The notes: generated by a model from the sequence alone, not told the origin. DNA of 62,169 nt from an uncultured virus (IMG/VR IMGVR_UViG_3300044540_000246) (IMGVR_UViG_3300044540_000246); one strand, 5' to 3'. Positions 5,679 to 55,441 are shown, counted from the stretch's first letter. Program-made: numbers and translations.

Positions 5679-6359
5679 ATGGCCGTGAAGAAGGTTCGCA
5701 AGGCTGACGGCTCCGCCGTCTTCGTTCGCACCGGGGAGGGGTCCGGCGGCGGCATCGTCGGCAACGCGCCCAGTCCGCGGACGCTGCGCGGCATCTCCGC
5801 GCCCGGACAGGCCCCGACCGCACTCCTTGACGGCTTGGACTGGCTCGCGGCGAACCCGGGCATCGTCGTGCCCTACCAGCCGTCCGTGGAAGCTGACCGT
5901 CTCGCATTCGCAATGGGAGCCGGGGGTGGAGTCGGAGCCTGGCTCGAACGCCGCAAGGCCCGGCGCGAGCTCGAGGAGAAGTTCGGCCCGATCGACTGGT
6001 CCGACCGGGACCTCGTTCCCGCGCCGACGTTCACCGCGCCCGCCCCGCAGGCGCCCGCGCAGCAGTCGATGACTGACACTGTCACGATGAGCGCGACCGC
6101 GCCTTCACGCTCCGCCGCGACCGACCCGGCCGCGCTTCGCGCGTACAGCGGCCAGTACGGGGTCCTGTGGTTGCGTGGCGCTGACGGCGACTTCTATCGG
6201 ATGGCAGACACTGCCCGAATGCTGCACTGCGAGGTCGGCGACCCCGGAGCCGCCGCGGACAGCGAATGGCGGCATAAGGAGCACGTCCTGGTCCAGTACG
6301 CGTCGTACGCGCTGCGGTACCAGCTCGATGACGTGTTGTTCACCCCGAACTCCGCCTGA
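5679..6359 (+). CDS. Hypothetical protein with divergent basic/Gly-rich N-terminal leader
   Basis: Starts MAVKKVRKADGSAVFVRTGEGSGGGIVGNAPSP; GGAAAGGG RBS; CGTTAGG at 5629. Confidence 0.65.
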   Translation: MAVKKVRKADGSAVFVRTGEGSGGGIVGNAPSPRTLRGISAPGQAPTALLDGLDWLAANPGIVVPYQPSVEADRLAFAMGAGGGVGAWLERRKARRELEEKFGPIDWSDRDLVPAPTFTAPAPQAPAQQSMTDTVTMSATAPSRSAATDPAALRAYSGQYGVLWLRGADGDFYRMADTARMLHCEVGDPGAAADSEWRHKEHVLVQYASYALRYQLDDVLFTPNSA

Positions 6360-6446
6360 CGCTGTAACGCTTCGACTGAGCATTCCGATGCGGTATAGTA
6401 GGGCTGTCCGGCTTTCGCGATCCCCCGGGCGAGAACGGACCAACCC

Positions 6447-7061
6447 ATGGCGCGCTTCTTCTCCGCTGACCACCACTTTGGACACGCCCGCATCATCGAG
6501 CTGTGCGGCAGGCCGTTCCGCTCCGTCGCGGACATGAACGAGATCATTCTCGCGAACGCATGGGAGATGGTCGGCCCCGACGATGACTTCTACCTCCTCG
6601 GCGACCTCGCGATGGGGTCCCTTGACGATTCACTCTCCTTCGCGTCCCGGCTCCCGGGACGGAAGATCCTCATCCTCGGCAACCACGACCGGCCTTTCAG
6701 TGAGCGAACCGAGCCGCGACGCGAAGCCGCTCGCCGCCGTTACGAAGACGCCGGCCTGACCATCGCTGACAGTCTCGTCGTTCGTGACACGATCGGGGGC
6801 CGCGACGTGCTCCTTTCGCACTTCCCATACGTCGGCGACTCCCACTCCGCCGTCGACCGGTGGGCCGAGGTCCGGGCCCGCGACGAGGGGCTGCCGATTG
6901 TGCACGGCCACGTCCACACGAGTTGGCACATCGACGGCCGTCAATACAACGTCGGTGTCGACGTCAACGACTTCCGGCCCGTTCCGGAGCAGGTCCTCGC
7001 CGACTGGGCCGCTTCCCTTCTTCCCGTGTCGTCCCAACACAAGACCGCCCGTGACCGATAG
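6447..7061 (+). CDS. Calcineurin-like metallophosphoesterase
   Basis: Motifs ADHHFGH, LGD, GNHD, SHFP, HGHVH, NVGVD. Confidence 0.92.
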   Translation: MARFFSADHHFGHARIIELCGRPFRSVADMNEIILANAWEMVGPDDDFYLLGDLAMGSLDDSLSFASRLPGRKILILGNHDRPFSERTEPRREAARRRYEDAGLTIADSLVVRDTIGGRDVLLSHFPYVGDSHSAVDRWAEVRARDEGLPIVHGHVHTSWHIDGRQYNVGVDVNDFRPVPEQVLADWAASLLPVSSQHKTARDR

Positions 7062-7122
7062 CGCCAGCGCGCGGCACAGACCCCGAACCGCCAACTCGCC
7101 AAATGAAGGAACCGACCGACTA

Positions 7123-8085: not shown

Positions 8086-8124
8086 CCCCTCGACGGGTTT
8101 GGTCGGGTCGGGTGGTGCGATGCG

Positions 8125-8131
8125 CGTTAGG
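8125..8131 (+). promoter_or_regulatory. CGTTAG(A/G) motif, representative copy; putative element-specific promoter
   Basis: Copies at 5629, 8125, 11874, 13126, 18790, 19336, 28431, 47187, 53957 and 58885, with variant AGTTAGG at 30488. All lie 15-80 nt upstream of + strand starts. Confidence 0.65.
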
Positions 8132-8168
8132 GTTCGACGGTCAGCAGCGGCCAGTGAAGGGATATCCG

Positions 8169-8261
8169 ATGCCCGCAACCCGTGACCCGAAAGGCGCCCG
8201 CCGCGGAGGAAAGAGCTCCGGCGGCCAGTTCACCGCGAACACGTCCGGAAAGGCCGGCATC
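8169..8261 (+). repeat. Leader A coding repeat, copy 1 (others 11918-12010 and 13937-14029)
   Basis: About 90-bp near-identical sequence at the 5' end of three unrelated ORFs. Copies 1 and 2 also share upstream CGCGTTAGGG...TCAGCAGC...GTGAAGG. Confidence 0.95.
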
Positions 8262-8723
8262 ACAGCACCAAGCGTGCCGCCGATACCGGGACCTGCGCGT
8301 CTTGCGGATGCGGGCCAGGGAAGCTACGGCATGACGCGCGAACAGTTTGAAGCGTTCCTCGCCGCCCCTCCCCCTGCTCTTGTCAGCATTTCGGTCGAGC
8401 AGCTGTCCGACCGCCGCGACCGCACCCTTCTCCTGGGGTACACCGTTAACCGTGACACCTTTCACGTATACCTCCAAGACGGACTCCTGTGCCGTCACGT
8501 CTACTCGTCCGTGTTCCCGGATCGGTCAATCGCGGGATACGAGAACGAGGCTGGGGCGGAGCTTGTCGTTCAAGAGTTGGTCCCGAACAAGCGCGTGTAC
8601 CCCCAGTACTGCGACCCGGAGTTTGTCGGGCTCCTCCGGCAGGCGGGCGTCACGGTGCCGTTCACTAACCACAGCGATCCGGGGCGGGAAGGGCCGTTCT
8701 TCGCGAAGACCATGGAGGGGTAG
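8169..8723 (+). CDS. Leader-A-tagged hypothetical protein
   Basis: ATG 8169 after GAAGGG; MPATRDPKGARRGGKSSGGQFTANTSGKAGI, a Pro-rich linker, then a globular domain. Confidence 0.8.
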   Translation: MPATRDPKGARRGGKSSGGQFTANTSGKAGITAPSVPPIPGPARLADAGQGSYGMTREQFEAFLAAPPPALVSISVEQLSDRRDRTLLLGYTVNRDTFHVYLQDGLLCRHVYSSVFPDRSIAGYENEAGAELVVQELVPNKRVYPQYCDPEFVGLLRQAGVTVPFTNHSDPGREGPFFAKTMEG

Positions 8724-8965
8724 AAGGGCCCGGACGGGACGGTGTCGTCCGCTACGCCTTAGTCTCCGCATCGATCGGGATGAGGAATCCGCGCGTCTCG
8801 TGAGCGTGCTCAGCTCCCGAAATCGCCAGTTCAGTAGGGATATCGAACAATTTCGCAACCGCCCTCCCAGCCCCACGATCGCAAATCGCCAGTTAACGCG
8901 CTACACCGGTCACCGATAACCGATGGCGTCGGCGCTTTGCCGGCCGGTTCGGAACGGGGCTTCCT

Positions 8966-9844: not shown

Positions 9845-9866
9845 CACGCGCTTCTGTCGCGGCCGG

Positions 9867-11827: not shown

Positions 11828-11917
11828 ACGCCCGCCTGCGGGTATCGACGCGCCGTCCGACCACCCCGTACCGCGTTAGGGCCCCACAGTCAGCAGCCAC
11901 GTGAAGGAGACCTCCCG

Positions 11918-12481
11918 ATGCCCGTAACCCGTGACCCGAAAGGCGCCCGCCGCGGAGGAAAGAGCTCCGGCGGCCAGTTCACCGCGAACACGTCCGGGAA
12001 GGCCGGCATCGCCGCCCCCGCCGCAGCCCCGGCGAGGAAGCCCGCCCACGGCGGACGGCTCCTGCGTCACACCGCAGAAACCCGCGCCGAGCTGACCGCG
12101 ATGCTGCACAAGAAGTTCGACCAGGGCTACTTCCAAGGCTCCTGGGGCCGGATCGGTCGCACCCAGCACCCCGTCTTCGACGCACTCACCCCCGCCAGCC
12201 TCTGTGGCCGCTACACCACCGGCACGACCAGCGCCGAACCGCACGTGCGGGAGAAGTTCTGCCGCGAGTGCCGCAGCCTGTTCCGCGACGCCGTCACCAG
12301 CTGGCTCAAAGGCAAGGAAGGGCAGTTCCTTTCCGACCTCGAAGACGGCGACCCGGAAGCCGCCCGCAACAGCCTCGACTCCATCCAGCGATTCCGCAGC
12401 CTTCTCGCCGCCAGCCCGAAGACATGGGACCTGTCGCTCCGAGGCGTCGACACTGACGAGCTCCCGCCTCGCCGGCGCTAA
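11918..12481 (+). CDS. Leader-A-tagged hypothetical protein
   Basis: MPVTRDPKGARRGGKSSGGQFTANTSGKAGI followed by a domain with SLCG...FCREC; GAAGGAG RBS. Confidence 0.8.
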   Translation: MPVTRDPKGARRGGKSSGGQFTANTSGKAGIAAPAAAPARKPAHGGRLLRHTAETRAELTAMLHKKFDQGYFQGSWGRIGRTQHPVFDALTPASLCGRYTTGTTSAEPHVREKFCRECRSLFRDAVTSWLKGKEGQFLSDLEDGDPEAARNSLDSIQRFRSLLAASPKTWDLSLRGVDTDELPPRRR

Positions 12482-12823: not shown

Positions 12824-12895
12824 ATGAACTCACACTTACAGGACCCGAAGACCGGAAAGATGGCCGGCTCGACCGCCGGCCGCGACAACGTCCCC
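12824..12895 (+). repeat. Leader B coding repeat, copy 1 (others 13141-13212, about 18820-18894 and about 19397-19470)
   Basis: LQDPKTGKMAGSTAGRDNVP is identical in copies 1 and 2; the others read IQDPKTGRLAGSIGCGRD and LQDPTTGKMAGSAAG. Confidence 0.92.
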
Positions 12896-13120
12896 GTTGC
12901 ACCCACGCCCGCGCCGGCGCCGTTTCCCTCCGGCACTCGAGTCCGGCACGCCGACACACCAGCACCTTCCGGGTGCCGGTGGTGCGGTCACGAGCAGCGC
13001 GGCCACGGCCACTCGTTCGTACGCAGCGTCGGCGGCCACCGATGGGAGCCACCGACCATGGCGCAGCGCCTTGCCCGCATGCGCGCACGGCGCGCAGCCC
13101 GACTATCCGCGCAGCGCTGA
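12824..13120 (+). CDS. Leader-B-tagged small Cys/His protein
   Basis: MNSHLQDPKTGKMAGSTAGRDNVP followed by PSGCRWCG...H...H.WEPP; GAAAGG RBS. Confidence 0.75.
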   Translation: MNSHLQDPKTGKMAGSTAGRDNVPVAPTPAPAPFPSGTRVRHADTPAPSGCRWCGHEQRGHGHSFVRSVGGHRWEPPTMAQRLARMRARRAARLSAQR

Positions 13121-13140
13121 CGTCGCGTTAGAGCCCTGCC

Positions 13141-13914
13141 ATGACCTCCTACCTGCAGGACCCGAAGACCGGGAAGATGGCCGGTTCGACCGCAGGCCGC
13201 GACAACGTCCCGGCTACGCCCGGCCAGGCTCCCGCCACGTTCGCCAACAACGCGCCGGCGGCGCACATCCCCGAGCTCGCGGACCTGTACGACGCATTCG
13301 TCGCCGAGCACAACCGGCCGCCAGTCATCGGACTTGACCTGGACGGCACCACCGCCGACATGGTCGCCAACCTTCGCGGTCGAGTAGCCGAAGCTCGCGG
13401 CATTGCCGCCGACCGGGCCACGTTGCCCGACCCGGACGACTACTTGATGTGGCAGGGCAGCGCCCCCTGGTTCGCCTCCAAGGAAGACTTCCTCGGCCAT
13501 TTCCAAGCAGCCGAACGGGATGGCATGTACCGAGAGCTCGGAACCTACGAGGGCGCAGTCGAGGTCCTCCGCACCCTCGCTGAGCATGGATTCGTTATCC
13601 ACGCGGTCACCGCTCGCAGCGCCACCTACAACAACGACACGCAGGCATGGCTCGACGCCCAGGGCATCCCGGCAATCCAAATCCGTAACCCCGGATTCGA
13701 CAAGCACACACTCGGCGACGTCGACGTGTTCATTGACGACGCTCCTCACGTCATTGACGGGCTCGCAAACGCCGGCCGGTCGGTCGTCGTGTTCGAGCAG
13801 CCCTACAACGCCGACAACCTGCCGGCAGCAGACCATGTCAAGACCATGACCCGCTGGGAGGTTCAGCAAGTCGCCAACGCGCTACGCGCCCTCCTGAACA
13901 CCGGTCACCAGTAA
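13141..13914 (+). CDS. Leader-B-tagged HAD-family 5'(3')-deoxyribonucleotidase-like protein
   Basis: Leader B, then IGLDLDGT (HAD motif I), VTAR, FIDDAP and QPYN. Confidence 0.85.
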   Translation: MTSYLQDPKTGKMAGSTAGRDNVPATPGQAPATFANNAPAAHIPELADLYDAFVAEHNRPPVIGLDLDGTTADMVANLRGRVAEARGIAADRATLPDPDDYLMWQGSAPWFASKEDFLGHFQAAERDGMYRELGTYEGAVEVLRTLAEHGFVIHAVTARSATYNNDTQAWLDAQGIPAIQIRNPGFDKHTLGDVDVFIDDAPHVIDGLANAGRSVVVFEQPYNADNLPAADHVKTMTRWEVQQVANALRALLNTGHQ

Positions 13915-13936: not shown

Positions 13937-14419
13937 ATGGCCACGACACGTGACCCGAAAGGCGCCCGCCGTGGCGGAAAGAGCTCCGGCGGCCAGTTCA
14001 CCGCGAACACGTCCGGCAAGACCGGCGTCGCCGCGCCAGGCGCAGCACCTACCGACTTCCTCGGAACCGTCCGCGAGGGGCTCGCAGCCGCGCACAAGCA
14101 GGTCGAAGTGCATGAGGCCCAGCTGTACCGCCACGGCCATGCCGGCGTGACCGCCCTGGCCCGGCAGATGTTCCCGACCGCCGCGACTATCGAACTCGTC
14201 GACGCAAGCGATTCCGGAGGCTCACCGTACTTCCTCGCTCACCGCATCCTAGACGCGGCCGGCGACGAGCTTTGGAGCGTCGAAGCCAGCTACGGCAGGA
14301 GCGACGCCATCCAGGATCTGCTCGGCGAGTTCACCCCCTACTTCGACCGTCACATCCCCGAAAGCGAACGCCGCCACACGTATCTCGGCAACGACGTCTG
14401 GGAAGTCACTCTCGGCTGA
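13937..14419 (+). CDS. Leader-A-tagged hypothetical protein
   Basis: MATTRDPKGARRGGKSSGGQFTANTSGKTGV; GAAAGGG RBS; starts 22 nt after the previous gene. Confidence 0.8.
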   Translation: MATTRDPKGARRGGKSSGGQFTANTSGKTGVAAPGAAPTDFLGTVREGLAAAHKQVEVHEAQLYRHGHAGVTALARQMFPTAATIELVDASDSGGSPYFLAHRILDAAGDELWSVEASYGRSDAIQDLLGEFTPYFDRHIPESERRHTYLGNDVWEVTLG

Positions 14420-14461: not shown

Positions 14462-15010
14462 TCAGCCGCTCAACGTGGCGAGCACCTGCCACTCGACGCC
14501 GATCCCGCTGTTGCCCTGGATCGCAGCACGGACCGTAGGGTTCGGGTCCTGCGCGAGAAGCGCAGCAATCGGGTCGGGCAACCCGGCCGCCTCCGCCAGC
14601 GCCTTACGGACCGGCATGTGCCGGGAACGCGCCAGGTCGAGGAGAACCTGCGGTGCGGCAGCGAACCGCGCCGCCGCCCACACACCCACCATGGCTTTGG
14701 GTCCAAGGTCCAACGGCGCCTGCCCGGACAAGACCAGCGGGTGCTCCAGCGCGCCCAGTAGGGCCGCCAAGTTCCGGAGGAGGTTTGACGGCGTCTCCGC
14801 GTGAACCAACATGATGTGAGGGACGACCACTGCTCCCGCCGGCGCGGAGCACAGGCTTGCCGGCAGGTGCGGAACCCGCGCGGTCGCCGCTGACCGGTAC
14901 GATCGCTCGCAGTCACGGTCCCACCAGTCGAGCTCGACACCGTATCGGTCGGTCCGCGGCGTGACGACGTCGGGGATCGGGTCGAGCATCAGCCGTGAGT
15001 ACGTTGTCAT
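14462..15010 (-). CDS. Hypothetical protein with LRV/HEAT-like C-terminal repeats
   Basis: LARSRHMPVRKALA...LAQDPNPTVRAAIQGN pattern. Confidence 0.55.
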   Translation of the reverse strand: MTTYSRLMLDPIPDVVTPRTDRYGVELDWWDRDCERSYRSAATARVPHLPASLCSAPAGAVVVPHIMLVHAETPSNLLRNLAALLGALEHPLVLSGQAPLDLGPKAMVGVWAAARFAAAPQVLLDLARSRHMPVRKALAEAAGLPDPIAALLAQDPNPTVRAAIQGNSGIGVEWQVLATLSG

Positions 15011-15071: not shown

Positions 15072-15077
15072 CAGATC

Positions 15078-18758: not shown

Positions 18759-18819
18759 CTACTCCCGACAGATACCCGCCCCGATACCGCGTTAGGACCC
18801 CAGCACGAAAGGACGCGAC

Positions 18820-19215
18820 ATGGCTGACCACATCCAAGACCCGAAGACCGGCCGGCTCGCCGGCAGCATCGGCTGCGGCCGCGACACCGCGCCGGCCTCC
18901 CCGCGGACCGAGCTCGCCGCCCTGCACGCAGCCCGCGACCGAGCGTTCACGGAACAGACTGACGCGAACTGGGAAGCAACCCGCGACCAGCTCGTCGCCC
19001 GTTACGGCCTCGGTAACCACGACATCGCCCGCGTCTCCAGCCACCGGCAGGCCCACCCCGGAGTGTGGACCGGGACCGTGACCGTCCGCGGCCGACGGCT
19101 GCGCGCCCGCACCATTCTTGGAACGACGGAACGCGCCCTCTACCGGCACCCACTCGTCGGCCGTCCGCTCACCCGCGAGCAGCTCGCCGACCTCGTCGGA
19201 CCGACCTCGACATAA
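18820..19215 (+). CDS. Leader-B-tagged hypothetical protein
   Basis: MADHIQDPKTGRLAGSIGCGRD; GAAAGGA RBS; CGTTAGG at 18790. Confidence 0.75.
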   Translation: MADHIQDPKTGRLAGSIGCGRDTAPASPRTELAALHAARDRAFTEQTDANWEATRDQLVARYGLGNHDIARVSSHRQAHPGVWTGTVTVRGRRLRARTILGTTERALYRHPLVGRPLTREQLADLVGPTST

Positions 19216-19396
19216 GCGCCATAGCCCCCGAGGGTCTTCCCGGCTGGCTGATCACCGGCGCGCCGCGGTGACAACGGCTCCGGCAAGCCCGGCGACCAGC
19301 TGACCGCCCTCGCCGAGCTCGCCAAGCTGCGGACCCGTTAGAGCTCCCCTGACCGCCGCGCCCCAGCTGCGCGGCGCTGAGCGACGGGAAGGCGAC

Positions 19397-19969
19397 ATGG
19401 CCAAGCACGACTACCTGCAGGACCCCACGACGGGAAAGATGGCCGGCTCCGCCGCCGGTGCACGCCGTACCCCCTCCGCCCCCGCCGCTGCGCCCGTCGC
19501 GTTCCAGCCAGAGCCCGGCGCGAGCCCCGCTCGGGTCGCGTACCTCGCCGCGATGGAGGCCCGCGAGATCGCCCGCCATCACCGGAACGCCATGTCGGAC
19601 CTTGTGACCCACCCATCCGGCCGCGGCGCCGACTACATCATCTTCTCCGCCGAAGGTCTCCCCGTCCGCACCGCCACCCTCGACGGCGAGTTCACCGCCC
19701 GGCACGGCGACCCCGCACTATTCGCCGCACTCGACGAACACGCCCCGTACATCACCGCCCACGAGGGCATGTTCGACGACGCCCGCATGTACGGCGGGCG
19801 GATCTCTCTCGATGCCGCCGAACGCGCCCTCCCGGTCCTCAAGCGATGCGGCATCGACGGATGCATCTACCGAACCGGCCCCATCGGCAGCTACCCCCGC
19901 CATAGCCCCACCACCGGCTGCCACTACGGCGGCGTGCTGCGGCACTGCATGTGTTCCCGCTGCTTCTGA
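19397..19969 (+). CDS. Leader-B-tagged hypothetical protein with C-terminal Cys/His cluster
   Basis: MAKHDYLQDPTTGKMAGS...; ends CGIDGC...H...C...HCMCSRCF; CGTTAGA at 19336. Confidence 0.75.
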   Translation: MAKHDYLQDPTTGKMAGSAAGARRTPSAPAAAPVAFQPEPGASPARVAYLAAMEAREIARHHRNAMSDLVTHPSGRGADYIIFSAEGLPVRTATLDGEFTARHGDPALFAALDEHAPYITAHEGMFDDARMYGGRISLDAAERALPVLKRCGIDGCIYRTGPIGSYPRHSPTTGCHYGGVLRHCMCSRCF

Positions 19970-28423: not shown

Positions 28424-28508
28424 CGGCCGGCGTTAGAGCTCAACTATTGGCCGCCGCCCGGAACTCAGATCGACTGCCGGGCGACGCGACCTCGAAGGGG
28501 GAAGCTTC

Positions 28509-28988
28509 ATGCTCAACCGAAACCGTCAACTCCGCCGGGACCGTCAAGGGCGTTTCGCCCGCTCGCATGCTGTCGCGACCGCGACCCCGAACACCCCCTT
28601 CCCGGCACCCACCCTCCTCCCGGCGGCGTTCGACTCACCTCGCGCAGCGTTCCAGGCCGAGCTCGAAGCTCACCTGGCTCGGGCGACCGCCAAAGCGATC
28701 CGCGAGCTGACCGCATTCGAGACCTACGAGGGGCCTCATCTCATCGTGACCGTACGGACACCTTCCAGCACCGCTCGCGTTTCCGAGATGGAGGAAGGGA
28801 TCTGGGAGGCGGTCACGTCACCGCATACCGTCGGCGCCGCACCGCAGCTCGGCGGACCTTTCCGCACCAAAGCCGAAGCTCGATCCTGGGCCGAGAGGAC
28901 CGCGCTCGACGTCCACGTCGCTCGCACTCATGAGCGAGTCATCGCCGCAGCCCTTGACGGTCTACGCGCCGGTTCCGCTCACGCCTGA
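28509..28988 (+). CDS. Hypothetical protein with RDxxGRF-type leader
   Basis: MLNRNRQLRRDRQGRFARSH then a Pro-rich linker; GAAGGGG RBS; CGTTAGA at 28431. Confidence 0.7.
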   Translation: MLNRNRQLRRDRQGRFARSHAVATATPNTPFPAPTLLPAAFDSPRAAFQAELEAHLARATAKAIRELTAFETYEGPHLIVTVRTPSSTARVSEMEEGIWEAVTSPHTVGAAPQLGGPFRTKAEARSWAERTALDVHVARTHERVIAAALDGLRAGSAHA

Positions 28989-30398: not shown

Positions 30399-30531
30399 GA
30401 CGCTCCCTCTCTCGCGGACAGTGCCTACTGTCGCAGGCACCTCCGACATTCGTACAGCGCCCCTGTCCGGACACCTCGCCGGCGTGCAGTTAGGTATCCA
30501 TTCCACGCTGAACCGCACTCCAGGAGGACCC

Positions 30532-32043
30532 ATGCCTGCCGCACGCGAGAATCGCGGCGCCAAGCGCTCCGGCGTCAGCATCGGAGGGCAGTTCGCGCCA
30601 GACCGGTCAGGCATCCGAGGCGTTCGGGCCCGTCCCGAAGCGCCCACTACCGCTTCCCCCTATGAGGTCGGCGAGGCTTCCGAGCTGGCCGACATTGACA
30701 TCTGCACCGTCTGCGAAGGTCCGATCCTCCCCGCAGACGAGGGTGCCTGTCAGGCCTGCGAGCAAGCCGCCTACGAAGCGGCCCTCAGTAGCTCGCTACC
30801 GGACGACGTACTCGAACGTGCGCTCGCTGAAGACGCAACTGCCCAGCCGCCCGTCCGGACCGTTTCCGAGTTCGAGCTGCCACCCGAGCTCGACACGACC
30901 GTCTCCTCGCTCGCGCGGGCCGTCGTCGACGGCGACCCTGCCGCCGCAGCGGACCTGCGCGCGCAACTCACCGAACAGATTGCTCGCCTCCCAGTCCAGG
31001 CCATCCCGGCGCCCTTCTCCAGCGACCCCGTAGATCCGGCCGAGCTCCCCCATACGGCAGGCATCTACATCATCACCGGGCCCGACGCCTCCTATGTCGG
31101 CCTAGCTAAGGACATCCACCAACGCTTCTACAACCGCGACTACGGCCATCTGACAGAGAACAACCACTGCCGGTCCCGCTTCATCCTCGACGGGGATGAC
31201 TACGAAATTCGAGTCATCCCCGTCGACGCGAGCGAAGACGGCCGTGAGGCTCAGCAGTACGCGCTCGCCGAAGCAGAAATTCGCGCCTACGCCCAACTGC
31301 ACGCCGCCGGCCACTATCCGAACAACGCCTTGGCGACCCTCGGCCGAGTCGGTGACGGGAAGGTCATTCCGATCGTCGCCTGTGACCTGGCGACCGGCGA
31401 GTACACCTTCTACGAGTCGACGATGGCCGCCACCCGCGACACCGGCTCAACCTCGATCGCTGCCGCGCTGCACGGATACCAGCGCATCGCCGCCGGCCGG
31501 GTCGTGCGGTGGGCGACGTTCGGCGAGCAGGAGCTCCTTCTCGACAAGACCGACCGGGCGGGGAAACTCACCGGCGAGATCGTCACGAAGGCTCTGTCCA
31601 TTCAGCCGCGCTCGGTCGACTGGGGCGAAACTCGCGAGGGTGGGCGCGGAGCTGACTTCTCGTGGTCCGGTGGCGCCCTCGCCGCCGACGACATCACCAC
31701 GCTACGGCCCTATGTCCGCGGCGTGGGCTCATATAACAAGAACCGCCCTACCAGCGGCTACTACGGCGTGCGCAGCCTTGGCGACGAAAGCAAGTGGGAA
31801 GTTCGCATCAAGACCGGGCCCGGCCCGCGCGACGCGATCACTAAGACGTTCGCTGACGCGCACGAGGCGGCCGTCTACCGGGAGTCCTATATCACCGACA
31901 ATGGCCTGCAGGCATATAACAACGGGGTGGGGGCCTCGAACGCAGACGCGCTCAACTTCCACTTCGGAGCAAGGCAGTTCACCGGATGGGACTCTTCGCC
32001 CGGCCGTCGCGCTGCCGCCGACGGGGCCGCTGCCGCCGCCTAA
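30532..32043 (+). CDS. Leader-tagged GIY-YIG endonuclease with Zn ribbon and C-terminal AP2-like domain
   Basis: AGGAGG RBS; leader RENRGAKRSGVSIGGQFAPDRSG; CTVC...CQAC; GIYIITG...YVGLA...RF...E...N; TSGYYGV...WEVRI...TF...EAA.YR. Confidence 0.75.
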   Translation: MPAARENRGAKRSGVSIGGQFAPDRSGIRGVRARPEAPTTASPYEVGEASELADIDICTVCEGPILPADEGACQACEQAAYEAALSSSLPDDVLERALAEDATAQPPVRTVSEFELPPELDTTVSSLARAVVDGDPAAAADLRAQLTEQIARLPVQAIPAPFSSDPVDPAELPHTAGIYIITGPDASYVGLAKDIHQRFYNRDYGHLTENNHCRSRFILDGDDYEIRVIPVDASEDGREAQQYALAEAEIRAYAQLHAAGHYPNNALATLGRVGDGKVIPIVACDLATGEYTFYESTMAATRDTGSTSIAAALHGYQRIAAGRVVRWATFGEQELLLDKTDRAGKLTGEIVTKALSIQPRSVDWGETREGGRGADFSWSGGALAADDITTLRPYVRGVGSYNKNRPTSGYYGVRSLGDESKWEVRIKTGPGPRDAITKTFADAHEAAVYRESYITDNGLQAYNNGVGASNADALNFHFGARQFTGWDSSPGRRAAADGAAAAA

Positions 32044-36773: not shown

Positions 36774-36875
36774 GCCCGGCCCATCGGTTCAGGGCCACCT
36801 CCGACCCGCAGTCCGACCGAACCGATAAGGCACCGGAAGACCGGAAAGACACCGAGGAGCGAGGCACTCACCGAC

Positions 36876-40720: not shown

Positions 40721-43618
40721 TCAGCGAGCTGTCGTCACCGAGATAGTTGCTGGCAGCGACTGGCCGAAGCCGTTCACGGCGATCACGCGGAACATGTATC
40801 GAGTTCCCCGGATCAGGCCTGTCACGGACGTTGAGCGAGCCGTAGATAGCTTCGACTGGATCGTCGTCCAGGAAGCGCCACCGTTCGTTGATCGCTGGAT
40901 GAGGTAGGAGCGGATCGCGGAGTATGGCGAAGACGCAGGCGTCGACCAGGCGAGGTTGACCGACGTCCGGTACACGGCAGTGGCCCGGAAGCTCCTCGGA
41001 GCGCTAGGCCGACCGTTCAGGGTAGTCACCGTCAACGAAGCCGACGGTGCACCTGCGCCCATGCTGTTCACCGCGGCGACCTGGAACAGGACCGTACTTG
41101 TCTGCGTAAGCCCAGTGACGGTGGCTGTCGTCACTGCCGAAACCGGGTCAACGAAACGCTTCCACGACACGCCCCGATCCAACGAATACCACACAAGATA
41201 GTCGGTGACGGCAGGCCCCGCTGTCGGCGCAGCAGTCCAAGCAAGACCCACAGCCGTTGGCGTCACCGTCGTCGCGCGGACTGCGGTTGCGGTACCCGGT
41301 ACCGACGGTGACGTCCACGTCACAGTTGCCGGCGTGCCAGTCCCGTACGAGTTCACAGCAACGACACGGAACGCGTACGACGTGCTTGCCGCGATCGGTA
41401 CGGAAGCTCCCGTCGTCGCCGTAACCGCGTCACTGACGGGAACCCAAGTCTCGCCGCCGTCCGTCGACACGGTCACTCGGTAATCGGTGACGGCCGTCAT
41501 GCTCGTGAGCGGAGCGGTCCACGTCAGCGGCACCTTCCCGCCGCCGGGGATGCCTACCGTGAGGGAGCGAACCGCCGACGGGGTCGGGGTGAGGGTCGCA
41601 AACGTGGCGGAGGCAGGTTCGCTGACGCCGGTAGCGGTCACCGCGGCGACGGAGACGTCGTAGCTCGTGCTGGCCGACAACCCCGTCAAGGTTGCCGTCG
41701 TTGTCGAAGTAGTCACCTCCCCGGCTGTGCCGTTCGAGCCGGACCACGAAACGAGGTAGCTCGTCGCCGGCGCGAAACCGGCGCCTGGCGCAGTCCACGC
41801 GACCGTCAGGCGGTCCACGCCAGGCGTGGCGCGGACGTTCGTCACCGGCCCGATCGGGGTCGACTCGGCGATGAACGAGACGGGCGCTGACCATGCGCCA
41901 GCCTTGGTCATCGTGTCGGCGCGCACGGCAACCTGGTACTCCACTCCACCGGTGAGAGGGGCGGGAATCTGGGCGCCGACCGTTCCGGTGACATCCGCCT
42001 CGGCCCAAGCGCCGTCGGTCTGCTTCCACATCAGTCGGTAAGTGCGGATCACTTCACTGTACGTCGCCGTCGGCGCTGTCCACGTAACGAAACCAGTCGG
42101 GGTGACCGCGACGTTTCGAGGCGCAGATGGGCCAGACGTTGCCGATTGGGTCACGACCGCAGGTACGACCGTTGCCGTTTCTCCGTAAAGGCCGTCCGAG
42201 GATTGGAACAAGTCGAATGTGTAGCTGGTCCCCGCGGTCAACCCCGTCAGGGTCGCCGTCGTGCCATCCACTGCTGCGCTACGAGTCCCCGCAAAGCGAA
42301 CCAGGACGCCAGCGGAAGGGCTATCCCACGCCAATGTCACGGTGGAGCGAGTCACGTCGACAACGCGGACGCCGGCTGGCCCGGTGACTGGTCGTGGCGC
42401 AGCGATAGGGGCGAGGAAGATGGAGTTCGCGGAAATTGTCGTGCCGGAGAGCGGGCGCAGCGGTCCGTCGTGCAGGCCGCCGGACTGTGCCGCGGCAAGG
42501 AGCTGCTGCTGCACGGCGGACGGCGTCAACGCGGGGTTCTCAGCGAGGAGAAGGGCTGCCATTCCTGCGACCAACGGACTGGCGAACGATGTTCCGTTCG
42601 CTGCTCCATGCCCGCCTGTGGCGATCGCGACGGGGACGGCGGTCCCAGGGGCGAAGCCGTCGACGCACTGGCCGCCGTTCGAGAACGACGATCGGGCGTC
42701 TTGGCCGTCAATAGCAGCTCGCTCGAACGCGCCCACCGTCAAGATTGCGGGCACGCGTGCGGGGGTGTTGATGCACGCTTCGACGACGCTTGTCGCCGTG
42801 GAGTCGTTGCCGGCCGCGGCCACGACGGTCAGGCCGGCATCGTGGAGCGCTGTGACGCCGCTGTCGAGAAGCGCAGCTGCGGAGCTCGTGCCGGACGCAT
42901 CCTGGGCGGCGAGCGAGAAGTTGACTACGGCGGGAGTACCAGAAGGGTGGTTGGCGAGGATCCAGTTAATGCCAGAGAGGACCGAACTGGTCGTCCCTCC
43001 GCCGGTGCAGTCAAGAACCCGTACGGGGACGATTGTCGCGCTCTTCGCCACTCCGTTCCGTATGCCAGCCGCAGCAGATGCGACAGCCGTGCCATGTCCG
43101 TCGCAGTCGTTCCATCCTTGAGTCGCGCCGAATGCATCAAATCCGGAGATGACACGGCCGGCGACATCCACATGGAGGTTGTTCACTCCCGTGTCGACAA
43201 CGTAGACCCTCACCCCCGACCCGGCAGACGCTGGATACCAGTACTGTCGGTGGAGGGCGCCATCGGTTCCGCCGACCGGTTTAGTTTGGTCGATGCGGTC
43301 CAGCGCCCAGCCGGGTTCGGTTTGAGTGTCGGTGGTGCTGACCGGGATGTCGAGAGCAACATCGATCCCGGGAAGCTTGTCGAGGGCGGCTGCCTCTGAT
43401 GCGCTCAGATCGGCCGCGGCCGCGTCGACTTCCTCGAGGATTTCGCCGGACTCGCCAACTCGGTCGAGGGCTGCTTCAACCGCGGCGGGGGAATCGCCGG
43501 TGACGAGGTACCCCGCTTCGGCCTGTGTTGTTGCGGCCGCAGGGCTTGTGAGACTGACGATGAGCGTAGCGGTCGTGACGATACTCGCCAGAACGATCCG
43601 GGTGGGTGTGTGAGCCAA
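40721..43618 (-). CDS. Secreted S8 subtilisin-like serine protease with about 6 fibronectin type III repeats
   Basis: Signal peptide; catalytic triad VDTG, HGTAVA, GTSFASP; repeated LxWxAP...Y.F.V.AVN FN3 units. Confidence 0.93.
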   Translation of the reverse strand: MAHTPTRIVLASIVTTATLIVSLTSPAAATTQAEAGYLVTGDSPAAVEAALDRVGESGEILEEVDAAAADLSASEAAALDKLPGIDVALDIPVSTTDTQTEPGWALDRIDQTKPVGGTDGALHRQYWYPASAGSGVRVYVVDTGVNNLHVDVAGRVISGFDAFGATQGWNDCDGHGTAVASAAAGIRNGVAKSATIVPVRVLDCTGGGTTSSVLSGINWILANHPSGTPAVVNFSLAAQDASGTSSAAALLDSGVTALHDAGLTVVAAAGNDSTATSVVEACINTPARVPAILTVGAFERAAIDGQDARSSFSNGGQCVDGFAPGTAVPVAIATGGHGAANGTSFASPLVAGMAALLLAENPALTPSAVQQQLLAAAQSGGLHDGPLRPLSGTTISANSIFLAPIAAPRPVTGPAGVRVVDVTRSTVTLAWDSPSAGVLVRFAGTRSAAVDGTTATLTGLTAGTSYTFDLFQSSDGLYGETATVVPAVVTQSATSGPSAPRNVAVTPTGFVTWTAPTATYSEVIRTYRLMWKQTDGAWAEADVTGTVGAQIPAPLTGGVEYQVAVRADTMTKAGAWSAPVSFIAESTPIGPVTNVRATPGVDRLTVAWTAPGAGFAPATSYLVSWSGSNGTAGEVTTSTTTATLTGLSASTSYDVSVAAVTATGVSEPASATFATLTPTPSAVRSLTVGIPGGGKVPLTWTAPLTSMTAVTDYRVTVSTDGGETWVPVSDAVTATTGASVPIAASTSYAFRVVAVNSYGTGTPATVTWTSPSVPGTATAVRATTVTPTAVGLAWTAAPTAGPAVTDYLVWYSLDRGVSWKRFVDPVSAVTTATVTGLTQTSTVLFQVAAVNSMGAGAPSASLTVTTLNGRPSAPRSFRATAVYRTSVNLAWSTPASSPYSAIRSYLIQRSTNGGASWTTIQSKLSTARSTSVTGLIRGTRYMFRVIAVNGFGQSLPATISVTTAR

Positions 43619-47161: not shown

Positions 47162-47241
47162 CGAAACTCACTGCGCGGCCGCGCAGCGTTAGGCCGCCTG
47201 CCGCATGGCCGTCCGCGGCAAGGGGGGCCGGCAGGGCCGGA

Positions 47242-51320: not shown

Positions 51321-52019
51321 TCACGACCAGCGAGCGATGGCGGTAACGGTTCCGGGCGCGATCTCGGTGAAGCCGGCATCCTCGACCCGGACCGGCGCGA
51401 GGTCGACCAGGGTGCGCCAGCGCCACGGTTCGGGGTGCTCAACCGCAACCGGGTATCCGTCTGCAGCCCAGCGGTCGCGTCGACGGGCCGGCATTGCGGC
51501 GAGCGCGATTTGGGCGGCATGGCCCGCCGCAGCAGCCGCTTTCCCGAGCGAAAGGTGCGGGTCGGTGCTGATCGACACGACCAGGGGCCCGCTCGCGATC
51601 GGGGCCATTATCTCCGGGCCGAGGACGACTGGTTCCGAACCGGTCAGCTGCAGTCGGCGGATGCTGGACGGGATCTCGTTAACTGCGGTGGGGACCAGTG
51701 CGCGAACTGTCGCGCCGCCATGTGCGGAGACGGTGGCAATCAGGCCGGGTGCAGCGTCTACCTTCTCGAAGTCGGTGGCGGTCCGCGCACGGCGGGCATG
51801 CTTGCGGATCCGGCCGGCGGTCCACCGGACGATCGCGTCATGCCACTCCCCGCCGGGCTGGGAGCGCGGGTCGGTCAGGACGTGAACTACGGCGGTCGCA
51901 GCGGCGGAGCAGACGGCAGCGCGCGACGGAGTATCGCTGTTGCGCGGCATCCACGCGATCAGCTGCATCGCCCACGGGCTCTCGCCGTCCGGGTCGACGT
52001 GGCGGGCATCTTCGCTCAC
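51321..52019 (-). CDS. Peptidyl-tRNA hydrolase type 2 (PTH2)-like protein
   Basis: LSLGKAAAAAGHAAQ and VEDAGFTEIAPGTVT signatures; GTG 52019 after GAGGTG. Confidence 0.82.
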   Translation of the reverse strand: MSEDARHVDPDGESPWAMQLIAWMPRNSDTPSRAAVCSAAATAVVHVLTDPRSQPGGEWHDAIVRWTAGRIRKHARRARTATDFEKVDAAPGLIATVSAHGGATVRALVPTAVNEIPSSIRRLQLTGSEPVVLGPEIMAPIASGPLVVSISTDPHLSLGKAAAAAGHAAQIALAAMPARRRDRWAADGYPVAVEHPEPWRWRTLVDLAPVRVEDAGFTEIAPGTVTAIARWS

Positions 52020-52026
52020 GAGCACC

Positions 52027-52329
52027 TCACTGGTCCTGGCCGATGTCGAACAGGGACATGTCCGGCCCTGCGTCTGCGTCGTTGGCGGGAATCGCGAGAG
52101 GGATGTCCGCCCCGGCAGGGTCTGGGGCCTCGGTCCACTCCGAATATGTCGTGGTGACGGTTCGGATCCGCATGATCGGCCGGGAGCCGAGCTGCACGTG
52201 CGCCTCGTAGCGGTGCCATGCGAACGCAGCATCGTCGAGGACGCCGGTCGGCACGAGCGACCCGTCGTTGCGATAGGCCCAGACCTCGTATTCGGTCCGG
52301 GTCGTGCTCCGGTCTGCGGTCATGGTCAT
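52027..52329 (-). CDS. Small hypothetical protein
   Basis: ATGA-coupled within the operon. Confidence 0.6.
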   Translation of the reverse strand: MTMTADRSTTRTEYEVWAYRNDGSLVPTGVLDDAAFAWHRYEAHVQLGSRPIMRIRTVTTTYSEWTEAPDPAGADIPLAIPANDADAGPDMSLFDIGQDQ

Positions 52330-52910
52330 GCTCCCGATGGGTCAAGGTGGGCGGCGATGCGAGTGACATCGTTGAACGTCAGGCCGACAGCAGGGTCCGT
52401 CGCAATCAGCAGGCCGGGACTTGCTGGGAACGCTGACGCGTCGTCGGCGCCCGGCGTCAGACCCGCCATGGCGATGGCTTCGTCGTCGACCCATGCGTAC
52501 GGGCGCGGATGCGCAGCGAGATGTGTTCGAAGCGCGACATGCTTCCAGGTTGCGGGGATGGCTCCGCGGTAGCGGGGAGGCTGCTTCGCGAGGACGAACC
52601 CGCCGGCGAGTCGACCGTCGAAAGCTTTCTCAACCAGCGCACGCGCGTTCGGGCCCCACGTGGTCAACCAGCCCAAGCCGACCCGGCCGGAGGCGACGAG
52701 CTCGTCAAGTGCGTCGATGACGATGTCGTCGAAGTCGATGCGGTATTTCGCTCCGTGCGCGGTCCGCACTAGCCGCGACGACAGGCCGGCCGGCGGCGCG
52801 AGGTCGGGGTCGTCGAAGACGTTAAGGACCCCGTCGACGTCGAGGGCGAGCAGCGGCAGGCCAGTCGGAATGTCGGAGGGGCCAAGGAGCACCGGTCGGG
52901 TCGCGGTCAT
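52326..52910 (-). CDS. HAD-superfamily protein (Swiss-Army-Knife RNA-repair HAD-like)
   Basis: LALDVDGVLN, WLTTW, K, YAWVDD, DPAVGLT. Confidence 0.8.
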   Translation of the reverse strand: MTATRPVLLGPSDIPTGLPLLALDVDGVLNVFDDPDLAPPAGLSSRLVRTAHGAKYRIDFDDIVIDALDELVASGRVGLGWLTTWGPNARALVEKAFDGRLAGGFVLAKQPPRYRGAIPATWKHVALRTHLAAHPRPYAWVDDEAIAMAGLTPGADDASAFPASPGLLIATDPAVGLTFNDVTRIAAHLDPSGA

Positions 52911-53431
52911 CGGCGGCGCTCCGTGCTCTTGACGATAGTGCCCTCGGGTACATCGAGGACGAGCTCGGCGGAGTACCCGCATGAGGGGGAGGTGCGTACG
53001 GTTCGGATCCAGTCGGGCAGATCTTCGCCCTCTTCGGCCGGCGCGACTCCGATCGCCCACGTGCCGCCGGCTTTCGTGTAGAGGGCTGTGACGACTAGGG
53101 CGCTGCCGTCTGGGGCGGTCAGGACGAGCTCGAGGCCGCCAGCGGGGGTGTTGTACTCGTCGCTGATTGCTCCTTCGAGCTCGACAAGGTCGTCGCTGGC
53201 GCCGTAGACGCGCAGCTCGCGACGACCGGACAACACACGCCCGATCTCGTCGGCGGCGAGCCGATCGAGCAGGGCGCGGACCTGACAGGTCCCCCATTTC
53301 GCGCCGCAGCCACATTCCGCGTTCTGGTCATGCGCCTCATCGCCGGCGGTCGGATAGACCCGCTGATGGTCGACATAGAGCGCCGCTCGCAACGCGACGG
53401 CGTCGCGAGCTTCGAAGTTGGGGGCAGTCAT
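52907..53431 (-). CDS. Phage-like hypothetical protein
   Basis: VYGASDDLVELEGAISDE motif; coupled to the next gene. Confidence 0.65.
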   Translation of the reverse strand: MTAPNFEARDAVALRAALYVDHQRVYPTAGDEAHDQNAECGCGAKWGTCQVRALLDRLAADEIGRVLSGRRELRVYGASDDLVELEGAISDEYNTPAGGLELVLTAPDGSALVVTALYTKAGGTWAIGVAPAEEGEDLPDWIRTVRTSPSCGYSAELVLDVPEGTIVKSTERRR

Positions 53432-53448
53432 GGCGCGGACGGTTCTCT

Positions 53449-53721
53449 CTACGGGGTCGACGGTCGGTCGACGATGTCGGTCAGGTTCTCGGGCTTGGGT
53501 GCGAAGCCCGCCAGGAGCATCGGCCAAATGACCGGCAGGGTGCACGCCTCGCCCTCTCCGTGGGTGGAGTTCGCGACCGCTATCGCGGCGAGGCAGTGCG
53601 CCTCCTCGTGCGTGTCGCTGCGCTTCTGGGCGCGACCGAGGAGCCATTCCGCGGCCGCGAAGAACAGCTTTCCGACTATCCGGTCGGCCAGCGGCAGGTC
53701 CGGGCGGGCTGCGTGCGTCAT
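53449..53721 (-). CDS. Small hypothetical protein
   Basis: ATGA overlap with the upstream ORF. Confidence 0.55.
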   Translation of the reverse strand: MTHAARPDLPLADRIVGKLFFAAAEWLLGRAQKRSDTHEEAHCLAAIAVANSTHGEGEACTLPVIWPMLLAGFAPKPENLTDIVDRPSTP

Positions 53722-53888
53722 CGAGTGGTCTTCCGGGCGCTTTCCCGTGCCTCGTATGCGGCCAGGCGCGCCATCCCTTCGCGGTGCGCGGCGCGGATGT
53801 ACCAGCCGAGAGTCGCGACTCCCATGATGAGAATGGCGGGCAGGACGAAACCGCGGGTAAGGAAGTCGAGCACGGTCAGTGCTTCCAT
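53718..53888 (-). CDS. Small membrane protein
   Basis: AAGGGGG RBS; one TM segment; first gene after the promoter box at 53913-53934. Confidence 0.6.
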   Translation of the reverse strand: MEALTVLDFLTRGFVLPAILIMGVATLGWYIRAAHREGMARLAAYEARESARKTTR

Positions 53889-54001
53889 GAATGCCCCCTT
53901 TCGGACACTCACAGTATAGGCCCCCTGTACGACATTGCGGCAGTCCTCTGCGCGTTCGTTAGGGCTTCAGGAGCCATAACTGCCCGAGGAAGGTGCCCCT
54001 G

Positions 54002-55441
54002 ATGACTGCACGCGAGGAGATCATCGACGGCGGCCGCAAGATCGTCCTGCGCCGCGACAACGGCGAGCTTGCCGGCTCCCGCTCGATCGCCGGCAAGTCC
54101 GGCATCGCCGCACCGGTAGCGTCAGCCCCTGTCGCGTTCCCCGGAGCTCTCGGCATCGTCGACTCGACCCAGCTCGACGAAGCGGAGGTGTTCCTCAACC
54201 TCATTCACCACAGCGACATGCCTGCCGTCGACGAGGACTTCGATGCAGTGGAGCATCGAGCAGCATGGCTCGAGAAGCTCCCCGAACCGCTCCAGGTCGG
54301 GTACCTCACGATGCGGACCCTGCCAACCAGCCTGGGCGAGGATCAGGCGCAGTACGTCTTCACGGCGCTACGCAACAGCGTCAAGCGCTGGGATCCGGCG
54401 CCCGTGGAGCCGACGGACCAGGAGTGGGAGACATACCTCGCGGAGACGGCAGCCAAGCTCGCCGACCCGGAGAACATGATGACTCCCGAGGCTCGTGCGG
54501 ATGCGCTCGCACGTCTCGGCGCCCTGTCGATCGGTCCGAAGCCGGACGGTCCGACGTTCGCCGTCATGGTCAACGCACCCAAGCGGGCCTGGCAGGCCAA
54601 GTTCGCCCTCGATCAGCAGGCCCTACAGATCGCATCCTGGGTCGACGCAGACGAGTACGAAGTGAAGCGGATGGTCACCCGGTTCCGCAGCGAGTACTAC
54701 GCGCTCGCCGACGCCGGCACGCCGCCTGAGATCGATCCGAAGTATCACTCCGCGTGGAAGCGAACCGACTGGTACTCCCCGAAGGACGCCGCGACCGCCT
54801 ACTCGCATTGGAAGGCGGAGAACCCCGAGCTCTATCTCAACCCGGAGGAACCCCGCCGATTCGTCGCCCTTGACCTCGAAACGACCGGCCTGTCGACTCG
54901 CGACTCGGACATTATCGAGGTCGGCCTGGTCGAGTACGACGCGAAGGGTCGCGAGATCGGCAGTTGGAACCAGCTTGTTCGCCCGCCGGCGCAGCCGGAC
55001 GGCTCGATCAGCGTCGGGGACGAGAAGGTCCAGTCGGTGCACAAGATCTCCGTCGAGGACGTCATCAACCAGCCGACGTTCGACCAGATCCTTCCCGAGT
55101 TGCATAAGCGCCTCGTGGGGGCGACCGTCATTGGCCATAACCTCGCGTTCGACACCCGTCACCTGCGCACCAACTTCCGCTCCTACGCCCCCGACGGGGA
55201 TCGTGAGCTGTCGAAGGCTCCTTGGAAGGGTGAGGCGGACACGCTGTTCCACGCCGCACGACACATGGACGGCTTGGAGAACAACAAGCTGCAGACCGTG
55301 TCCCAGTCTCTCGGGATCTCGTACACCAACGGGCACCGGGCCGAGCATGACGCCCGCGCGGCCGGCGAGGTGTTCTTCGCCCTGCGTAAGCAGATTAAGC
55401 GCCGCCAGGCCGCTGCGATCGCGGCGGCAGGTCAACGATAA
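54002..55441 (+). CDS. Leader-tagged DEDDh 3'-5' exonuclease (DnaQ-like) with a large N-terminal domain
   Basis: ExoI ALDLETTG, ExoII GHNLAFD, ExoIII HRAEHDA; N-terminus RRDNGELAGSRSIAGKSGIAAP; CGTTAGG at 53957. Confidence 0.88.
   Translation: MTAREEIIDGGRKIVLRRDNGELAGSRSIAGKSGIAAPVASAPVAFPGALGIVDSTQLDEAEVFLNLIHHSDMPAVDEDFDAVEHRAAWLEKLPEPLQVGYLTMRTLPTSLGEDQAQYVFTALRNSVKRWDPAPVEPTDQEWETYLAETAAKLADPENMMTPEARADALARLGALSIGPKPDGPTFAVMVNAPKRAWQAKFALDQQALQIASWVDADEYEVKRMVTRFRSEYYALADAGTPPEIDPKYHSAWKRTDWYSPKDAATAYSHWKAENPELYLNPEEPRRFVALDLETTGLSTRDSDIIEVGLVEYDAKGREIGSWNQLVRPPAQPDGSISVGDEKVQSVHKISVEDVINQPTFDQILPELHKRLVGATVIGHNLAFDTRHLRTNFRSYAPDGDRELSKAPWKGEADTLFHAARHMDGLENNKLQTVSQSLGISYTNGHRAEHDARAAGEVFFALRKQIKRRQAAAIAAAGQR

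Follow-up and report, generated by a model that had tools for sequence, protein, structure and literature searches.

The cargo-loading peptides of encapsulins are mostly C-terminal (family 1), those of bacterial microcompartments (BMC) are amphipathic helices, and encapsulin shells have the HK97 fold. MIX, LXG and PE/PPE are folded N-terminal marker domains of at least 100 residues, tied to the type VI or type VII secretion system (T6SS or T7SS). The capsid targeting sequence (CTS) of phage T4 is described as the sole conserved part of otherwise diverse internal proteins, and it also loads foreign proteins (PMC3012670). The start-associated sequence (SAS) of Cluster K mycobacteriophages is a 13-bp motif that is located 3–7 bp upstream of the start codon and holds the Shine-Dalgarno core (PMC3203893). 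The DNA analyzed here is a stretch of 62,169 nucleotides from an uncultured virus (IMGVR_UViG_3300044540_000246), hereafter the window. Eleven of its genes start with a related leader peptide that precedes different bodies (cargos), and they are associated with an upstream DNA motif, GTTAGR. With a probability of about 0.65, we consider the leader to be a docking tag that would bind one common partner.

The leader peptide and its forms

All eleven leader genes are on the + strand, with starts from 5679 to 54002, and represent about one gene in four of a hand-made list of 46 genes (11 with and 35 without leader). They are named here by leader type and start position, and their coordinates are given in Table 1. 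The leader has about 30–45 residues and displays the core [RQ]-D-P-x-(T)-G-[KR]-[ML]-A-G-S, which is followed by a Pro/Ala stretch often ending in AP[AV]x[FY]. A previous reading, made from the sequence only, had reported two families of leaders, A and B, and several divergent versions, about eleven in all. The A leader (M-x-x-T-RDPKGARRGGKSSGGQFTANTSGK) was recovered at the N-terminus of the ORFs at 8169, 11918 and 13937, the B leader ([YH][LI]QDPxTG[KR][ML]AGS) at that of the ORFs at 12824, 13141, 18820 and 19397, and divergent leaders at the starts of those at 30532, 28509 and 54002. Ten leaders are thus clear, and the reported number is reached only when the degenerate leader at 5679, which the leader profiles miss, is included. 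The latter was accepted solely through its homologue P0010 (38% identity), which bears a clear B leader.

Each leader gene has a ribosome-binding site of the GAAGG/GGAGG/AAAGG type directly before its ATG. With the window translated in all six frames, the regular expressions for A and B matched leader N-termini alone (3/3 matches for A and 5/5 for B). When a profile of the ten leaders was run against all window frames, its members scored at least 43 bits and the next best window match 9.5 bits; as the training rows are recovered, for the members this search is circular, and all it shows is that no further copy is present. The linker and the lack of a signal peptide, both proposed earlier, were also confirmed. 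Residues 21–50 have a Pro+Ala fraction of 0.27–0.50, against 0.13–0.24 in the rest, in 11/11 proteins, and a run of seven or more hydrophobic residues is absent from the first 70 residues of all 11, indicating that the leaders are not Sec or Tat signals. AP[AV]x[FY] is a second, looser motif, found 12–16 residues after A-G-S in most B-type leaders, and its regular expression matches four window leaders. A small protein encoded on the - strand (14462–15010), which has a weak HEAT-repeat match, contains LAQDPNPTVR; its superficial likeness to the leader core LQDPKTG is probably a coincidence.

MAFFT puts the A and B leaders in one register around [RQ]-D-P-x-G. Two divergent leaders bridge the types: D_54002 has both a B-like RRDNGELAGS and an A-like GKSGIAAP, and D_30532 has GGQF in common with the A leaders. 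The BLAST alignment between A_13937 and its orthologue P0007 begins within the leaders (P0007 residue 11), and the offset, laid out by eye, places the B segment G-K-M-A-G-S-T-A-G-K opposite the A segment G-Q-F-T-A-N-T-S-G-K. These features are suggestive, though not proof of homology, of an A leader that would be a B-like leader with an insert after the turn.

The invariant positions of the leader are Gly, Asp-Pro, Ala and Ser, and Lys/Arg and Gln/Arg interchange. The invariant residues look structural rather than catalytic or acceptor-like, and DPxTG is a classic tight-turn sequence. Such a turn, together with the richness of the A leader in Arg, Lys and Gly, would be compatible with a small autonomous domain, i.e. 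a nucleic-acid-binding arm or an oligomerisation hairpin that acts alone and has no addressing role. However, the B leader is almost without net charge, only about 20 residues are conserved, and a PDB profile search with the leader found no resembling sequence (best E 0.39, within the Pro/Ala stretch). An autonomous domain is regarded as highly improbable. An ESM Atlas search with the leader gave no usable match, and AlphaFold2 prediction for B_19397 with P0015 had a mean pLDDT of 39.5, too low to be of use.

Cargo bodies and their homologues

The bodies behind the leaders had been described as unrelated domains. Among those with a known fold, the NT5C nucleotidase and the RNase_T (DEDDh) exonuclease are clear, but the GIY-YIG match is weak (E 0.024, 15.4 bits) and falls under the Pfam cut-off. 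NCBIfam gave no name to any of the orphan cargos. The family profiles start past the leader, at residue 61 for NT5C, 57 for phrog_420 and 291 for RNase_T. Homologues of the cargos found elsewhere were expected to lack the leader, and this is what was observed. All five phage nucleotidase matches begin at query residue 62–63, and in two phages the annotated nucleotidase gene starts just ahead of the match, by 6 codons in Mycobacterium phage Kumao and by 2 in Streptomyces phage Faust. For the exonuclease, the best 15 of 44 phage matches all begin at residue 286–287.

Selection on the peptide and exchange between cargos

Over the 14-codon B core, the copies differ by 3–5 synonymous and 1–6 non-synonymous codons. 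The A_11918 leader of a close relative (run X4; one contig of depth 2.1, hence weak) shows six changes, five of which are synonymous third-position changes by reading the codons. Between the orthologues B_19397 and P0015 (pair P0004/P0015, 60%), identity is 39/48 (81%) in leader and linker, 46/102 (45%) in the middle and 33/47 in the Cys-rich end. Moreover, the cargo of A_13937 has an orthologue, P0007 (44% over 144 aa), which bears a B leader instead of an A leader. The presence of different leader types on orthologous cargos is direct evidence of tags evolving as exchangeable modules.

These results showed that the leader exists, is N-terminal, is under selection at the peptide level, can be exchanged between cargos and goes together with a single upstream motif. 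The proposal of a portable module acting at the protein level is upheld by the unrelated bodies, the synonymous divergence and the leader swap on P0007.

The A copies are about 95% identical in DNA, with near identity along some 85 nt, which suggests that they spread recently. The Logan contigs of three runs stop at or join across the A-leader repeats (11955–12010 and 13987–14005). As the contigs break there, the A-leader DNA (~85 nt) behaves as a true, assembly-breaking DNA repeat.

The upstream motif GTTAGR

GTTAGR is present 13 times in the window, 12 times on the + strand. Nine sites are located 14–77 nt upstream of leader-gene ATGs (five of them at 43–49 nt), one before the amidoligase gene and three elsewhere. 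The binomial chance of finding 9/13 sites within this 880-nt target space is about 3e-17. The count of CGTTAGR is not over-represented (10 versus 6.3 expected, with 10/100 shuffles reaching 10), so that it is strand and position that carry the signal. Conservation around the hexamer extends over about 10 nt (cGTTAGRgcyc), and nothing -35-like is conserved near the sites. The two leader genes without their own GTTAGR, B_12824 and A_13937, are each located 22–26 nt behind the preceding leader gene. Since 9/13 sites precede them, the leader genes look like one regulon, and we infer that GTTAGR is a putative promoter or regulator site defining it. The sigma factor encoded by the element itself is possibly the reader of this motif.

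Two other observations concern the motif. One copy, GTTAGG at 47188–47193 (+), lies in the gap between the DnaG and NurA genes and is followed by an ATG and a Gly/Arg-rich 94-codon frame from 47205, antisense to the NurA-like gene; it may be an antisense transcript start, or chance. Directly behind B_19397, with which it has a GTTAGA site in common, a gene encodes a 2768-aa DUF11 protein (20117–28423, +). In this protein, DUF11 repeats (at least 10) and Cna-B/pilin-like parts lie between a signal-like segment at the N-terminus and a hydrophobic anchor at the C-terminus, which is followed by RRRRR; this is an odd content for a phage-like replication module.

The very tight link between motif and leader could also be explained by an expression cassette, in which GTTAGR, the ribosome-binding site and the first codons would have spread by recombination for timing or initiation, the peptide being a tolerated passenger. 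The near identity in DNA of the three A copies, two of which are also alike upstream, from motif to ATG, and their behaviour as true repeats that break the Logan contigs, are in line with such a cassette. It is nevertheless contradicted by the synonymous divergence with a conserved peptide in the B copies, the orthologues and the related strain, by the retention of the leader in the two genes that have no motif of their own, and by a motif-to-ATG distance that ranges from 14 to 77 nt. The peptide is also retained in P0011, whose residue make-up suggests a lower-GC genome, and the six 5' regions tested fold no better than their shuffles (z from -0.72 to +0.59 in 6/6). Rfam gave no match at gathering score for the leader 5' regions. 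Overall, an expression cassette appears rather improbable.

Through its GTTAGG, the SWIM-amidoligase is a possible functional partner of the leader proteins. The leader could then be a handle recognised by a modifying, processing or degrading enzyme, the candidates being this amidoligase together with the class-II glutamine amidotransferase, a tag-removing protease, or a protease of the host that would time the turnover. Of the leaderless genes, that of the amidoligase alone lies behind a GTTAGR (1/35 in the hand-made list), a GATase_6 gene is nearby, and the leader would be exposed on a flexible tether. On the other hand, the invariant Gly, Asp-Pro, Ala and Ser are turn-like and include no constant acceptor such as Lys, Gln or Glu, members of the amidoligase family (PHROG family) occur in many phages that have no such leader, and the common motif is the only link between amidoligase and leaders. 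The chance that the leader serves as an enzyme handle is therefore rated as small. A specific version, in which the SWIM-amidoligase and the glutamine amidotransferase would modify or ligate the leader proteins in a pupylation-like, phage-encoded tagging, seems far-fetched.

Distribution of the leader

The leader profile was compared with 1.84 billion representative proteins and gave 11 matches at E ≤0.001, all beginning at residues 1–6. Six of them are window proteins and five (P0007–P0011, E 6.6e-7 to 8.4e-4) are from elsewhere; the latter were not among the sequences used to build the profile. P0015 was added by a word-based search among longer proteins. As the sequence-only reading had expected from a profile scan, the leader was solely N-terminal, both in the window and in six proteins from other assemblies. 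The sources of these six proteins are small Logan contigs, a 28,007-bp JGI contig and a 130,754-bp NCBI contig. P0008 and P0009 form a cargo family without counterpart in the window. The body of P0011 is rich in Lys, Asn and Phe, its leader core is kept, and its leader and that of B_18820 are 63% identical; its residue make-up, judged by eye, suggests a lower-GC genome. From the comparisons with these six proteins it follows that the tag is rare, is restricted to a small lineage and can be exchanged between cargos.

Other searches were negative. Neither the leader proteins nor the leader peptides had a tblastn match in GenBank phages, PLSDB plasmids gave no leader match, and no relative was found in IMG/VR with leader alignments, two cargo proteins or a degenerate DNA pattern. 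Pattern scans of JGI metagenomes and GTDB species genomes gave 3 matches, none of them an N-terminal leader, and 15 matches, none of them a leader, respectively. A word search with the A leader returned the window's own three proteins alone. Literature searches found no name for an RDxxGRF-type motif and nothing relevant on shared N-terminal motifs in actinobacteriophages.

Table 1. Leader genes, GTTAGR sites and associated genes of the window.
Feature	Position	Strand	Remark
D_5679: degenerate leader (~5679–5830) and orphan body	5679..6359	+	homologue P0010, 38% over 102 aa, clear B leader
A_8169: A leader (8169–8258) and orphan body	8169..8723	+	P0003
A_11918: A leader (11918–12007) and orphan body	11918..12481	+	
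B_12824: B leader (12824–12925) and Cys/His mini-domain	12824..13120	+	phrog_20506; P0012; 26 nt after the gene before it
B_13141: B leader (13141–13242) and NT5C-type 5' nucleotidase	13141..13914	+	NT5C residues 61–224; P0013
A_13937: A leader (13937–14026) and orphan body	13937..14419	+	second gene behind B_13141; orthologue P0007
B_18820: B leader (~18820–18930) and orphan body	18820..19215	+	P0014; leader 63% identical to that of P0011 over 27 aa
B_19397: B leader (19397–19504) and body with Cys-rich C-terminus	19397..19969	+	orthologue P0015
D_28509: divergent leader (RRDRQGRFARS ... LLPAAF, 28509–28631) and orphan body	28509..28988	+	B-only profile A6, 11.5 bits
D_30532: divergent A-like leader (RENRGAKRSGVSIGGQF, ~30532–30620) and weak GIY-YIG match	30532..32043	+	
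D_54002: leader (RRDNGELAGS ... GKSGIAAP ... APVAF, 54002–54139), ~240 residues of no known function, DEDDh (DnaQ-like) exonuclease	54002..55441	+	P0016
D_54002 exonuclease domain: RNase_T residues 291–461			numbered from ORF start 53993
GTTAGG, 49 nt before ATG 5679	5630..5635	+	
GTTAGG, 43 nt before ATG 8169	8126..8131	+	
GTTAGG, 43 nt before ATG 11918	11875..11880	+	hexamer unchanged in X4 contig
GTTAGA, 14 nt before ATG 13141	13127..13132	+	
GTTAGG, 29 nt before ATG 18820	18791..18796	+	
GTTAGA, 60 nt before ATG 19397	19337..19342	+	
GTTAGA, 77 nt before ATG 28509	28432..28437	+	
GTTAGG, 43 nt before ATG 30532	30489..30494	+	
GTTAGG, 44 nt before ATG 54002	53958..53963	+	
GTTAGG, 62 nt before ATG 58948	58886..58891	+	sole copy preceding a leaderless gene
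Sigma factor, FliA/WhiG-like	56414..57340	+	
SWIM-amidoligase, 862 aa: CxC...CxH (SWIM-like, by eye) and Amidoligase_2 (PF12224, residues 551–775)	58948..61536	+	phrog_2443

Gene content and origin of the window

The G+C content across the window is 65–71%, and the window proteins are on record from a 124,169-bp contig. Three freshwater-metagenome runs contain the window DNA almost completely; two of them are possibly its source and one, from a further study, is independent. No RNA run was among those listed. The window ORFs were scanned with Pfam (50 ORFs), PHROGs (46 ORFs) and NCBIfam. The window encodes a set of replication proteins, including DnaE, GyrB, GyrA with an intein, DnaG and a NurA-like protein. 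It also encodes a vWA protein, a metallophosphoesterase, an M50B-like membrane protein, the NT5C nucleotidase, an HD hydrolase, a PD-(D/E)XK exonuclease, a dNMP kinase, a class-II glutamine amidotransferase (GATase_6), the Amidoligase_2 protein, a FliA/WhiG-like sigma factor and an S8 protease with fibronectin-III repeats. PHROG families were matched by the vWA protein, phosphoesterase, exonuclease, dNMP kinase, DnaQ-like protein and GATase, and the nearest relative of DnaE within phage records is an actinophage DnaE.

In the same scans, no type IV secretion system (T4SS), T7SS, Tad, secretion or conjugation gene was found within the window, and encapsulin, HK97-type capsid and BMC shell families were absent from the ORFs scanned with Pfam and PHROGs. 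Our reading of these features is that the source may be a large uncultured phage-like element of freshwater Actinomycetota, of which the window would be the replication and nucleotide half. As the window has no structural, secretion or conjugation genes, the label 'phage' is given on gene content alone.

Candidate relatives of this element were considered and rejected. The records MT835746.1 (L004) and MT835570.1 (L005), both entitled 'UNVERIFIED: Bacteriophage sp.', are matched in tblastn by the window DnaE, DnaG and one cargo; with 70–72% G+C, ClpP-, oligopeptide-transporter-, FtsZ- and MurG-like ORFs by eye, and no leaders, they resemble fragments of bacterial chromosomes. Saccharomonospora phage PIS 136 has only DnaE and an M50B-like gene in common with the window, and the leader is absent.

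Several neighbouring genes have features of their own. The GyrA gene (36189–40655, +) is interrupted by the intein, with Hint_2 at residues 315–350 and a LAGLIDADG_3 homing-endonuclease domain at residues 527–580 of the translated ORF. The S8 subtilase gene (40721–43618, -) encodes a secreted-looking protein in which six fibronectin-III domains follow the protease, and it matches phrog_3677 'protease' and tail-protein FN3 families. Further downstream, the product of 51321–52232 (-) has a weak PTH2 (peptidyl-tRNA hydrolase) match and that of 52326–53315 (-) a HAD_SAK_2 domain of the RNA-repair type. These two genes are hints of a putative RNA-repair or translation-rescue module.

Possible destination of the leader

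As a docking tag, the leader would present a hairpin-like core on a flexible Pro/Ala tether, often with AP[AV]x[FY] as an aromatic anchor at its end; in the A type, the insert would separate the turn from the G-Q-F-T-A-N part. The element would fuse this tag to the N-termini of many unrelated proteins and express the set as one regulon from GTTAGR, and all tagged proteins would be brought to the same partner. Since the window is without capsid, portal, prohead-protease and secretion genes, the destination itself can only be inferred. We tentatively suggest the assembling virion as the likeliest destination, a proposal that may well prove wrong, in which the cargo would be packaged and then delivered with the DNA, as with the T4 internal proteins. 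The suggestion is made by analogy, virion loading being the best-known phage use of such tags (T4 CTS; PMC3012670).

Several observations weigh against this interpretation. The Pfam, PHROG and NCBIfam scans found no capsid, portal, scaffold or prohead-protease gene in the window. The T4 tag ends in a prohead-protease site, with cleavage after Glu, and the leader alignments display no such conserved cleavage motif at the leader end; neither a conserved Glu nor another fixed residue is present at the boundary between leader and body in these alignments, although another protease specificity is possible. The identifiable cargos are replication-type enzymes (nucleotidase, DnaQ-like exonuclease and the weak GIY-YIG) located within a replication module, and they would fit an intracellular role at least as well. 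Homology of the A and B leaders is not proven, because a profile made from B leaders only (A6) recovers no A leader, and it rests on MAFFT, the bridging sequences and the P0007 swap. Finally, the 130,754-bp NCBI contig yielded one leader protein only, P0011, in profile and word searches; therefore, either the many-cargo system is not general in the lineage, or the leaders have diverged.

Because the cargos are of the replication type, their genes lie in the replication module and no cleavage site is visible, some weight was given to a recruitment tag, which would tether DNA and nucleotide enzymes to a replisome component or to another conserved hub of host or phage. Many enzymes are recruited to the sliding clamp or to SSB through short peptides at their termini. 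Here, the cargos of known fold act on DNA or nucleotides, the leader genes sit among those for DnaE, GyrA/B, DnaG, NurA and dNMP kinase, and the core is retained in P0011, seemingly from a lower-GC genome, as expected of a conserved hub. Moreover, the element DnaE has LLSMF near residue 945, in the clamp-motif region of DnaE (by eye), and AP[AV]x[FY] loosely recalls hexapeptide clamp-binding motifs. The sliding-clamp-binding consensus is of the Q-L-x-L-F or Q-x-x-h-x-F type. The leaders do not fit it: the motif-typical glutamine is at the first position in 1/11 leaders, the core has no likeness to it, and DPxTG...AGS resembles no clamp motif known to us. In addition, most cargos are orphans and no hub gene was identified. 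A complex prediction between the leader alignment and a stand-in sliding clamp (Swiss-Prot reference) had a score of 0.01, with no verdict for or against binding. Recruitment to such a hub is considered unlikely.

The vWA protein (4988–5611, DxSxS intact by eye) was considered as a dedicated receptor because its gene adjoins 5679 and the leader has an invariant acidic turn. It has 1987 homologues, is present in 376 IMG/VR stretches, and was found in 20/401 genomes sampled from the phylum to which G001 (the genome behind L012) belongs. In its best 80 viral loci (1.4 Mb), no leader match was obtained (0/80), and a de novo test for a shared N-terminal family of at least three ORFs was likewise negative (0/80), its sensitivity being limited, as the control on the window found B and missed A. 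This candidate was rejected, since it is far more widespread than the leader and never occurs with it in the 80 viral loci.

Comparison with known systems

If the tagged proteins do have one destination, the phage could enlarge or reshuffle its set of delivered or co-localised enzymes by placing genes behind the signal and a leader of about 30–45 residues, and the tag would provide a small natural means of loading foreign proteins. Together, the coding leader and its own upstream motif would also constitute a clean and testable regulon in large freshwater actinobacterial phages, a group without a laboratory model.

Like the MIX, LXG and PE/PPE polymorphic effectors, the leader proteins combine a conserved N-terminal module with variable C-terminal domains, and recombination reshuffles them. 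Unlike these modules, the leader is a peptide of about 20–45 residues, and there are no secretion genes in the window. With the cargo peptides of encapsulins and microcompartments, which bring diverse enzymes to one shell, the leader shares a short terminal peptide and a flexible Pro/Ala/Gly linker; it differs in being N-terminal, Gly-rich and turn-like, and the window has no shell gene.

The T4 CTS of IPI-III and Alt is likewise a short N-terminal peptide and the sole common part of diverse proteins of one phage. However, no sequence likeness to it was established, and the leader is longer (about 20 conserved residues and a tether). Its cargos are replication-type enzymes of 98–503 aa, and the window has no head genes.

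As to the DNA motif, the nearest counterpart described is the Cluster K SAS. Both are short asymmetric motifs, in one orientation, before many non-structural actinophage genes of different families (PMC3203893). They differ in position and content: GTTAGR, at 14–77 nt upstream, is separate from the ribosome-binding site and goes with genes that have a coding leader in common. Taken together, shared N-terminal address peptides on phage proteins are a known principle, and what is new is the sequence family, a portable N-terminal tag with its own upstream signal.

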